Origin: Armatimonadota bacterium
Lineage (GTDB): Bacteria > Armatimonadota > Zipacnadia > Zipacnadales > UBA5352
Assembly: GCA_034722055.1 (NCBI GenBank)
Contig: JAYENL010000330.1
Span: 1-16,731, forward strand
Direction of reading: 5' to 3'
DNA length: 16,731 nucleotides
The first letter of the stretch is position 1, and the number at the start of each line of letters is the position of its first letter. A model generated the notes under the pieces. It searched no databases. It was not told the DNA's origin and saw nothing but the letters and a program-made list of their open reading frames with translations. Positions 14,901-16,638 of this stretch are shown piece after piece. The position numbers were made by a program, and so were the translations under genes.

Positions 14901-16638
14901 GGCGGACACCGCGCTGCGAACCGCCGACGCCGGATACCTGACCCGCCGGCTGGTGGACGTGGCGCAGGATGTCATGATCGAGGCCCACGACTGTGGGACC
15001 ACCGAGGGGGTGACGGTGACCCCCATGTACGTGGATGACGTCTACTGCCCCTCCTGCGGCATGGTGGACTATCACCGCGATGGCGTCTGTCACTACTGCG
15101 GCGAGGAGCTGGATGTGCCGGAGGAGGCCGAGGTCTACCAGGATCTGCGGGCCCGCATCGTCGGCCGTTGGGCCGCCGAGGACATTATGCACCCCGAGAC
15201 CGACGAGGTCATCGTGGAGCACAACAACGAGATCGACGAGCTGGCGGCGCGGGAGATCGCGGCGTCCGGAATCAAGCAGGTCCAGGTGCGCTCGCCGCTG
15301 ACCTGCGAGCTGCCGCGGGGCGTCTGCGCCCTCTGCTACGGCCGGGACCTGGCCACCCAGCGGCGGGTGGAGGTAGGCACGGCGGTGGGCATCATCGCCG
15401 CCCAGTCGGTCGGGGAGCCGGGCACACAGCTCACCATGCGGACCTTCCACACCGGGGGCGTGGCCGGGGAGTACATCACCGGCGTGGCCGACGTGAAGAA
15501 GCGCAAGCAGCAGGCACTGCGGTCCCTGCAGGAGGACATCGACCAGGGGCGGGTGTCGCTGGACGTGGCCGGCGGGGGCCGCACCCGCCGGAAGGCCATC
15601 AAGGATATGCTGAAGGTGCTGGAGACCTCCGTCCGGGGGCTGCTGCGCGTGGAGGAGCTGTTCGAGGCCCGCACCCCCAAGGGCCAGGCCATCACCGCCG
15701 ACGTGGATGGGGTGGTGGCGGAGGTCACCCAGCGGGGCATGCGCACCGTGGTCATCCACTCGGACCACCCCATCACCGACACCGACGCCATCCGCGGCGA
15801 GCGGCTCGCCCACGACGTCTTCGGGCCCGACAAGGACGACGGGCCCATCGCCAAGCAGGGCGAGAAGCTGCTCAAGAAGGTCCGGGAGCGGCTGAAGAAG
15901 CACGGCATCGAGACGGTAACCATCCGCACCGAGCACCTGGTGCCCTACCGGGGCGAGCTGCTGGTGTCACAGGACATGGAAGTGCGGGCGGGCGACCCCC
16001 TGACCACCGGCCCGGTGGACCCCGAGAAGCTGCTGGCCATGCAGGGCCGTGAGGGCGTGCAGGACTACCTGCTGCGCGAGATCCAGCGCGTCTACCGCCA
16101 GCAGCACGGCATCAACATCAACGACAAGCACATCGAGACCATCATCCGGCAGATGCTGCTGAAGGTCAAGGTCATCGACCACGGCGACACGCGCTTTCTG
16201 CCCGGCGAGCTGGTGGATCGCTTCGACTTCATGGAGGAGAACGAGCGGGTCCAGGAGCTTGGCGGCGAGCGGGCCAGCGCCGAGCCGGTGCTGCTGGGAA
16301 TCACCCAGGCCTCCCTGGCCACTGAGAGCTTCCTGTCGGCGGCCTCCTTCCAGCGCACCACCCGGGTGCTCACGGAGGCGGCCTGCGAGAACAAGCGCGA
16401 CCCGCTGCACGGCCTCAAGGAGAACGTGATCATCGGGCGGCTGATCCCGGCGGGCTCAGGCATGCCGGTGCATCGCGACCGGGAGGTGGGCTTCTCGGGC
16501 GATGTGCTGGAGGACCTGGCCGTCCGGGGCGGCAGGAAGAAGTCGCGGGAGGCGGAGTCCATGGAGAAGCTGCTGGGCGACGTGGAGGCCGCGGCCGCCA
16601 AGCGCGAGGCCCAGGGCTCCGAGGGCAGCGCGGAGTAG
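11971..16638 (+). CDS. rpoC: DNA-directed RNA polymerase subunit beta' (1555 aa)
   Basis: TTG 11971 follows AGGAGG 11956-11961. Contains KPETINYRT, the N-terminal Zn finger, catalytic NADFDGD (13672-13692), bridge helix [22 protein letters not shown] and SFLSAASFQ. Confidence 0.99.

Follow-up and report, generated by a model that had tools for sequence, protein, structure and literature searches.

A helical trigger-loop insertion and replacement of the hinge proline in the RNA polymerase of Armatimonadota

All multisubunit RNA polymerases have a mobile catalytic element, the trigger loop, whose folding sets catalysis. In Proteobacteria and Cyanobacteria this loop carries insertions, SI3 or beta'-i6, which are beta-rich SBHM repeats that modulate pausing and Gre access. 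SI3 precedes the DITG motif in the loci that we read (L249, L250 and L310), and part of an earlier report places it between the loop and TH2a (PMC4227799). According to the preprint by Bao and Landick (10.1101/2021.01.27.428476), every known trigger-loop insertion is built of at least two SBHM repeats, and the authors raise the question of a repeated origin of such insertions. In Armatimonadota we found a real, phylum-wide trigger-loop insertion of predicted helical structure that goes together with replacement of the hinge proline and is apparently undescribed. No description of it was found among the papers listed by full-text searches on the trigger loop, SI3 or RpoC of Armatimonadota or Chthonomonas; a term search of the Armatimonadota genome papers examined found neither 'RNA polymerase' nor 'rpoC', and the supplement of PMC11077087 holds no entry beginning with Armatimonad-. 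Table S2 of the 2024 survey of BEAN and HABAS domains (PMC11515920) places two Armatimonadetes beta' in type 2, i.e. without HABAS/SBHM in the trigger-loop domain, and a helical trigger-loop insert is not mentioned in section 2.4 or among the text terms of that survey, figures aside.

The window, that is, the whole stretch of 16,731 nucleotides that was analysed, belongs to an Armatimonadota genome of 6.1 Mb (92.7% complete) in which rpoC is a single-copy gene, with one tblastn match. The features are the following.

8002..11826, + strand: rpoB, the partner gene upstream of rpoC (Pfam)
11839..16638, + strand: rpoC, RNA polymerase beta' subunit (longest ORF; Pfam Rpb1_1-5)
15385..15453, + strand: first trigger helix, TH1b-hinge 1-TH1a (AlphaFold helix 327-349)
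15451..15480, + strand: trigger-loop tip TGGVAG and EYIT, the positional equivalent of DDIT and start of TH2a (alignment)
15481..15633, + strand: net lineage-specific insertion of 51 aa (against insert-free RpoC)
15493..15543, + strand: predicted insert helix A, bearing a conserved K/R patch and ending in a near-invariant Asp and Gly (AlphaFold helix 363-379, column statistics)
15544..15576, + strand: variable turn joining helices A and B (length statistics)
15577..15636, + strand: predicted insert helix B, with the LKVLE motif, and the lead-in to hinge 2 (AlphaFold helix 391-405 or 391-409)
15637..15645, + strand: hinge 2, GLL replacing GLP (Leu codon at 15643-15645)
15640..15663, + strand: second trigger base helix TH2b, LLRVEELF (AlphaFold helix 412-419)

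The real start of rpoC probably lies about 130 bases inside the longest ORF. Further insertions were seen in RpoC, with approximate bounds: a long acidic helical stretch (window about 12400-12750), a segment of about 130 aa (about 13930-14320) and a four-cysteine loop, CPSC...CHYC, past the bridge helix (about 15020-15110). RpoB has a zinc-ribbon-like CKAC...CPRC insertion (about 10650-10740), with weak Pfam zinc-ribbon matches at residues 882-916. Immediately upstream of rpoB, in divergent orientation, lies an ORF on the minus strand (6561-7448) which we take, by eye, to be related to the pyridoxal 5'-phosphate synthase PdxS. The position upstream of rpoB is commonly occupied by rplKAJL.

In the window RpoC, 56 residues (15469-15636, in frame) separate TFHTGGVAG from GLLRVEELF. 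The equivalent stretch of B. subtilis reads TGGVAGDDITQ and then GLPR; because EYIT aligns with DDIT, the net insertion amounts to 51 aa. A Leu is encoded where Pro is usual. The first trigger helix has a mean identity of 93.5% (107 rows), and its NTP-contacting Q, M, R and H of TH1a are intact (QLTMRTFH). A preliminary description of this DNA had proposed both the insertion and the Pro-to-Leu hinge. Both were recovered across the phylum, the same insert being in frame in 110 of 111 Armatimonadota genomes and GLL being the hinge in the window and in 98 of 110 phylum loci. An assembly artefact or a chance event is excluded by this phylum-wide conservation of the in-frame insert.

A matching region was obtained from 287 of the 301 genomes sampled in the phylum. 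The trigger loop was read in 111 genomes, which comprise the best-scoring loci and picks covering 47 family labels and are not a blind sample. All but one of these genomes have the complete insert, all 47 families are represented among them and none was without the insert; the remaining locus (L069) is interrupted by a run of N beyond the first half of the insert. Automatic parsing succeeded for 107 of the 111 loci, and L055, L056 and L072, which were read by eye, all have the insert. The distance from TFH to the hinge ranged from 60 to 123 residues (107 rows), compared with 11-12 in insert-free RpoC, and the insert was about 50 aa long (range about 49-112). Among the 110 loci the hinges other than GLL were GIV (3), GLH (2), GLN (2) and one each of GIL, GVH, GLV, SLP and GIP; Pro was thus retained in two loci (L063 and L072), both of which bear the insert. 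Eight of the 107 rows scored below 10 bits on the insert profile (families f18, f19, f23, f37 and f39); these inserts occupy the same site, and we assume that they are homologous to the others. In L060, L064 and L066 (f18 and f37) the GG of the tip is lost (TFHTV...) and the strongly diverged insert ends in HVPRRR-GLL. In two genomes of one genus (L029 in G039 and L030 in G035), the NTP-contacting Arg of QLTMRTFH is replaced by Met in one and by Gln in the other, and the six other genomes of this genus retain the Arg; these substitutions may be real or may be assembly errors.

An insert-pattern scan of the GTDB genome collection gave 165 matches, including 146 relatives, and the best 80 of these 146 include Armatimonadota, Armatimonadia, Ca. 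Zipacnadia, WS1, Chthonomonas and Abditibacteriota. Two of the best 80 are titled Actinomycetes or Actinomycetota and coincide with genomes placed in the phylum of the window. RpoC of Chthonomonas calidirosea is a named protein with the insert and GLL. The suggestion that the insert is a phylum-level signature therefore agrees with its presence in all families sampled, and the insert is a candidate marker for Armatimonadota. The best explanation is that the ancestor of Armatimonadota acquired the insert and that it has been retained since. A quick tree of 68 rows, built without the insert columns, gave precedence to neither the insertion nor the proline loss, and the Pro-bearing rows formed two long branches.

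AlphaFold modelling of a 683-residue beta' fragment (112 rows) predicted helices at 363-379 and 391-405, with pLDDT of about 70-82, a turn between them, a coil at 406-411 and no strands. The insert modelled alone gave the same two helices, the second reaching residue 409, with a pTM of 0.37. The claim that the insert is not an SBHM is thus supported by both models, which have two helices and zero strands. The helical hairpin proposed earlier agrees with them as far as the helices are concerned, and the packing of one helix on the other is uncertain because of the low pTM of the insert alone. The rmsd of the 683-residue model to solved beta' is about 16 A, too large for the insert to be located within the enzyme; a complex prediction of the insert against flanking beta' pieces scored 0.00, the fold of the partner being uncertain.

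The two helices, with mean identities to the window of 59% and 54% (107 rows), are better conserved than the jaw (45%) or the rim helices (42%), for which 63 rows were used. One Asp and one Glu of the insert are invariant in a 64-row alignment, the Glu of LKVLE lies five residues before the hinge Gly (-5) in 99 of 107 rows, and the (L/I) of the (L/I)T motif lies 8 or 9 residues past TFH in 98 of 107. Variation in length falls mostly in the turn, the span from Gly to Glu being 23-67 residues. The insert had also been called basic. This is correct for a patch of four residues and a few other positions, as helix A starts with four consecutive positions that are 81-97% K/R and helix B has further conserved K/R, but not for the insert as a whole, in which the net charge has a median of +2 and a range of -3 to +12 (107 parsed genomes); the window insert has 13 K/R and 8 D/E.

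The hydrophobic moment of helix B points to 162 degrees and that of TH2b to 146 degrees, so that the two are in phase. The real register between them scored highest of eight tried, and only 8 of 10000 column shuffles reached its score, although the register at -3 was nearly equal (0.527 vs 0.538). These alignment statistics lend modest support to the idea that helix B and TH2b would run on as a single helix across a hinge that no longer has a proline, which the in-phase faces fit. The residue preceding the hinge Gly, at the position of E. coli G1136, differs from row to row (R 38, G 23, H 15, K 8 and S 8 in 99 rows) and has no Deinococcus- or cyanobacteria-like signature in these rows. At alignment positions 61, 132, 175, 515-516 and 536, which fall in the rim helix, F-loop, bridge helix and jaw, residues are fixed in Armatimonadota and different in four insert-free rows. 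These residues are candidate partners of the insert, a pattern inseparable from shared ancestry.

Because the insert is predicted to consist of helices only and lies after the equivalent of DIT, before which SI3 is located, we consider that it is not a degenerate SBHM and that it probably arose independently of SI3. The insert profile scored below 0 bits on SI3-bearing RpoC (L310 and L311), and Pfam gave no match to the insert above the cut-off. In a fold search with the insert alone, the best VIA match had a Z of 5.6 and the matches were generic helical ones, Atlas gave no usable match, and SBHM was absent among the 50 matches listed. Against 1.84 billion representatives the insert profile found 36 matches, namely 34 RpoC or RpoC fragments and two unrelated proteins, and no stand-alone donor domain. 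Every organism name given for the ten of the 36 that were looked up was Armatimonadota. In a second search, in which 120 of 300 matches were listed, the organism names shown were Armatimonadota or WS1, and GLL was present in 119 of 119 new sequences among those listed. The independent origin that had been proposed for the insert is therefore favoured by site and fold, which are unlike those of SI3, and by the lack of profile matches outside RpoC beyond the two unrelated proteins. A duplication of the beta' rudder was considered as a source, from a weak phmmer alignment of the window insert to the rudder/switch-2 segment, and was rejected as chance: in insert-free and SI3-bearing RpoC the best domain for the insert profile scored 1.2 bits and lay elsewhere in the protein, and the HHalign probability was 3.7%.

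A metagenome scan for non-Pro hinges, with a pattern blind to several residues, gave 80 loci among the matches listed. GLL and the insert occur together in 67 of these, 3 have a frameshift or lie off-frame, and the remaining 10 lack the insert and have a non-Pro hinge of another kind. Intact GLL occurred solely with the insert among these listed loci (67 of 67). The ten other loci mean that proline loss is not unique to Armatimonadota, and GLP, which had been presented as a conserved hinge, does not have an invariant proline elsewhere. One metagenome contig of another lineage (L324) encodes an RpoC with a different trigger-loop insert of about 25 aa with a GLK hinge, which scored -0.9 bits on the Armatimonadota profile. 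L317, L351, L355 and L380 are RpoC-like, with GLN or GLM hinges and a trigger helix reading QLTLDTKH or QLSLDSKH, not QLTMRTFH.

We propose that the beta' trigger loop acquired a two-helix segment past the I-T of TH2a and ahead of hinge 2, and that this segment would behave as an SI3-like tethered appendage, which has to move with every NTP as the loop folds. Such an appendage would shift the balance between the folded and unfolded loop, on which pausing, intrinsic RNA cleavage and the rate of elongation depend. Helix B would take over the role of TH2a and could continue into TH2b when folded; the helix-breaking proline may have been replaced by Leu because helix B runs on into TH2b, so that Leu would be a co-adapted hinge. 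Helix A and its K/R patch may face the entrance to the secondary channel. We regard it as an even call whether the insert resets the folding balance with helix B as an extended TH2a and Leu as a co-adapted hinge. The proposal is supported by the (L/I)T site, the helical fold, the conservation of the helices, the -5 register of Glu and the phase of helix B with TH2b, as well as by the coupling of GLL to the insert in the listed metagenome loci, although both share one ancestry and the coupling may represent one event. Precedents also support it: Gly/Pro-to-Ala changes in the E. coli hinge stabilised the folded trigger helices and slowed RNAP 25- to 300-fold, substitutions of P1099 in yeast Pol II were broadly loss-of-function (PMC10069792), and deletion of SI3 required a compensating trigger-loop change (PMC11077087). 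It is weakened by the coil at 406-411 in the in-context model, by the closeness of the -3 register, by the diverged inserts of several families, by the two rows that keep Pro with the insert and by the much larger cyanobacterial Si3, which part of one study reports to be without effect on catalysis (PMC10895346).

The same report on Si3 would suit a rival reading, in which the insert was fixed early as a tolerated appendage and is conserved merely to fold and stay clear, with little effect on catalysis or pausing. The turn indeed accommodates more than 40 extra residues and the inserts of some families are strongly diverged. However, the 111 genomes gave no case of loss, and charged surface positions are conserved (K/R at 81-97%; Asp and Glu invariant in 64 rows) that folding alone would not need, and this reading seems unlikely to us. 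The four consecutive K/R positions of helix A, with the conserved K/R of helix B, might instead form an arm that binds downstream DNA or backtracked RNA and stabilises open or backtracked complexes, not tuning folding. We hold this to be rather improbable, since the median net charge is just +2 and the patch could equally face an acidic protein surface. Hardly any credence is given to a degenerate SBHM or SI3 remnant, the outcome against which the preliminary description had set its own claim: the insert is in the same loop, a few residues from the SI3 site, but strands are not predicted, the scores on SI3-bearing RpoC and the Pfam result are as given above, and the insert lies on the opposite side of the DIT motif.

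The helices could also fill the secondary channel, raise intrinsic cleavage and either make Gre dispensable or exclude it. The preliminary description had directed attention to the Gre factors of the genome, and the outcome is mixed. The search for Gre was negative for all 18 members of the window's family and for 47 of the 67 genomes in its order. In that order PF01272, and likewise PF03449 above the cut-off, was present in 20 of 67 and the rpoC control in 62 of 67. The window's own genome has no match to a profile of 22 Armatimonadota Gre proteins (E<=10, filters off); a DksA/TraR-family gene is present. In Gre-less cyanobacteria, trigger-loop and bridge-helix residues compensate, according to part of PMC7026648. 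On the other side, 137 of 151 phylum genomes have PF01272, and the 22 Gre proteins read keep what we take to be the acidic tip motif. Family f7, the only one of the same order with short, GreA-sized frames, has stand-alone GreA alongside the insert in 4 of 4 genomes; the other 16 Gre matches in the order are in frames of about 890-1240 residues and are not stand-alone GreA. Exclusion of Gre by the insert is unlikely, given that Gre is retained in most of the phylum, and of this reading, which we judge quite improbable, the weaker version alone survives, namely that the insert made Gre loss affordable. Gre loss in the window's order came after the gain of the insert, and the Gre-less genomes are related, so their losses are not independent tests. 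A bolder form of our proposal, which we entertain as a speculation with a small chance of being right, is that the insert evolved independently as a second module for control of the active site, in which a long proline-free second trigger helix with raised proofreading or secondary-channel gating would have permitted repeated loss of Gre in the order.

If the origin was independent, as is probable, the insert would be a second way of building onto the trigger loop, distinct from the known beta-sheet insertion, in which an unrelated domain was recruited near the SI3 site throughout a phylum. It would also offer a natural experiment on the hinge proline, the residue whose substitutions in yeast Pol II broadly impair function.

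Compared with SI3 of E. coli and other SBHM-bearing lineages, the insert is likewise a lineage-wide beta' trigger-loop insertion near TH2a, and both are necessarily moved by folding of the trigger loop. SI3 of E. coli consists of two SBHM (188 aa, a beta-sandwich repeat) and keeps GLP, whereas the insert of Armatimonadota has about 50 aa, is predicted to be helical and has GLL. SI3 lies before the DIT motif and the insert after the I-T of TH2a (98 of 107 rows, equating EYIT/xYLT with DDIT). Si3 of cyanobacteria and chloroplasts (about 645 aa) is a trigger-loop insertion in a Gre-less lineage, and the window's order is largely without Gre; however, the SBHM repeats of cyanobacterial Si3 shield the Gre site phylum-wide, whereas Armatimonadota mostly keep Gre (137/151). 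With the insert-free loop of Bacillota and Actinomycetota (TGGVAG-DDITQ-GLPR), TH1, the tip, the I-T offset and TH2b align directly, and the Armatimonadota loop differs by 51 additional residues and by the change from Pro to Leu.
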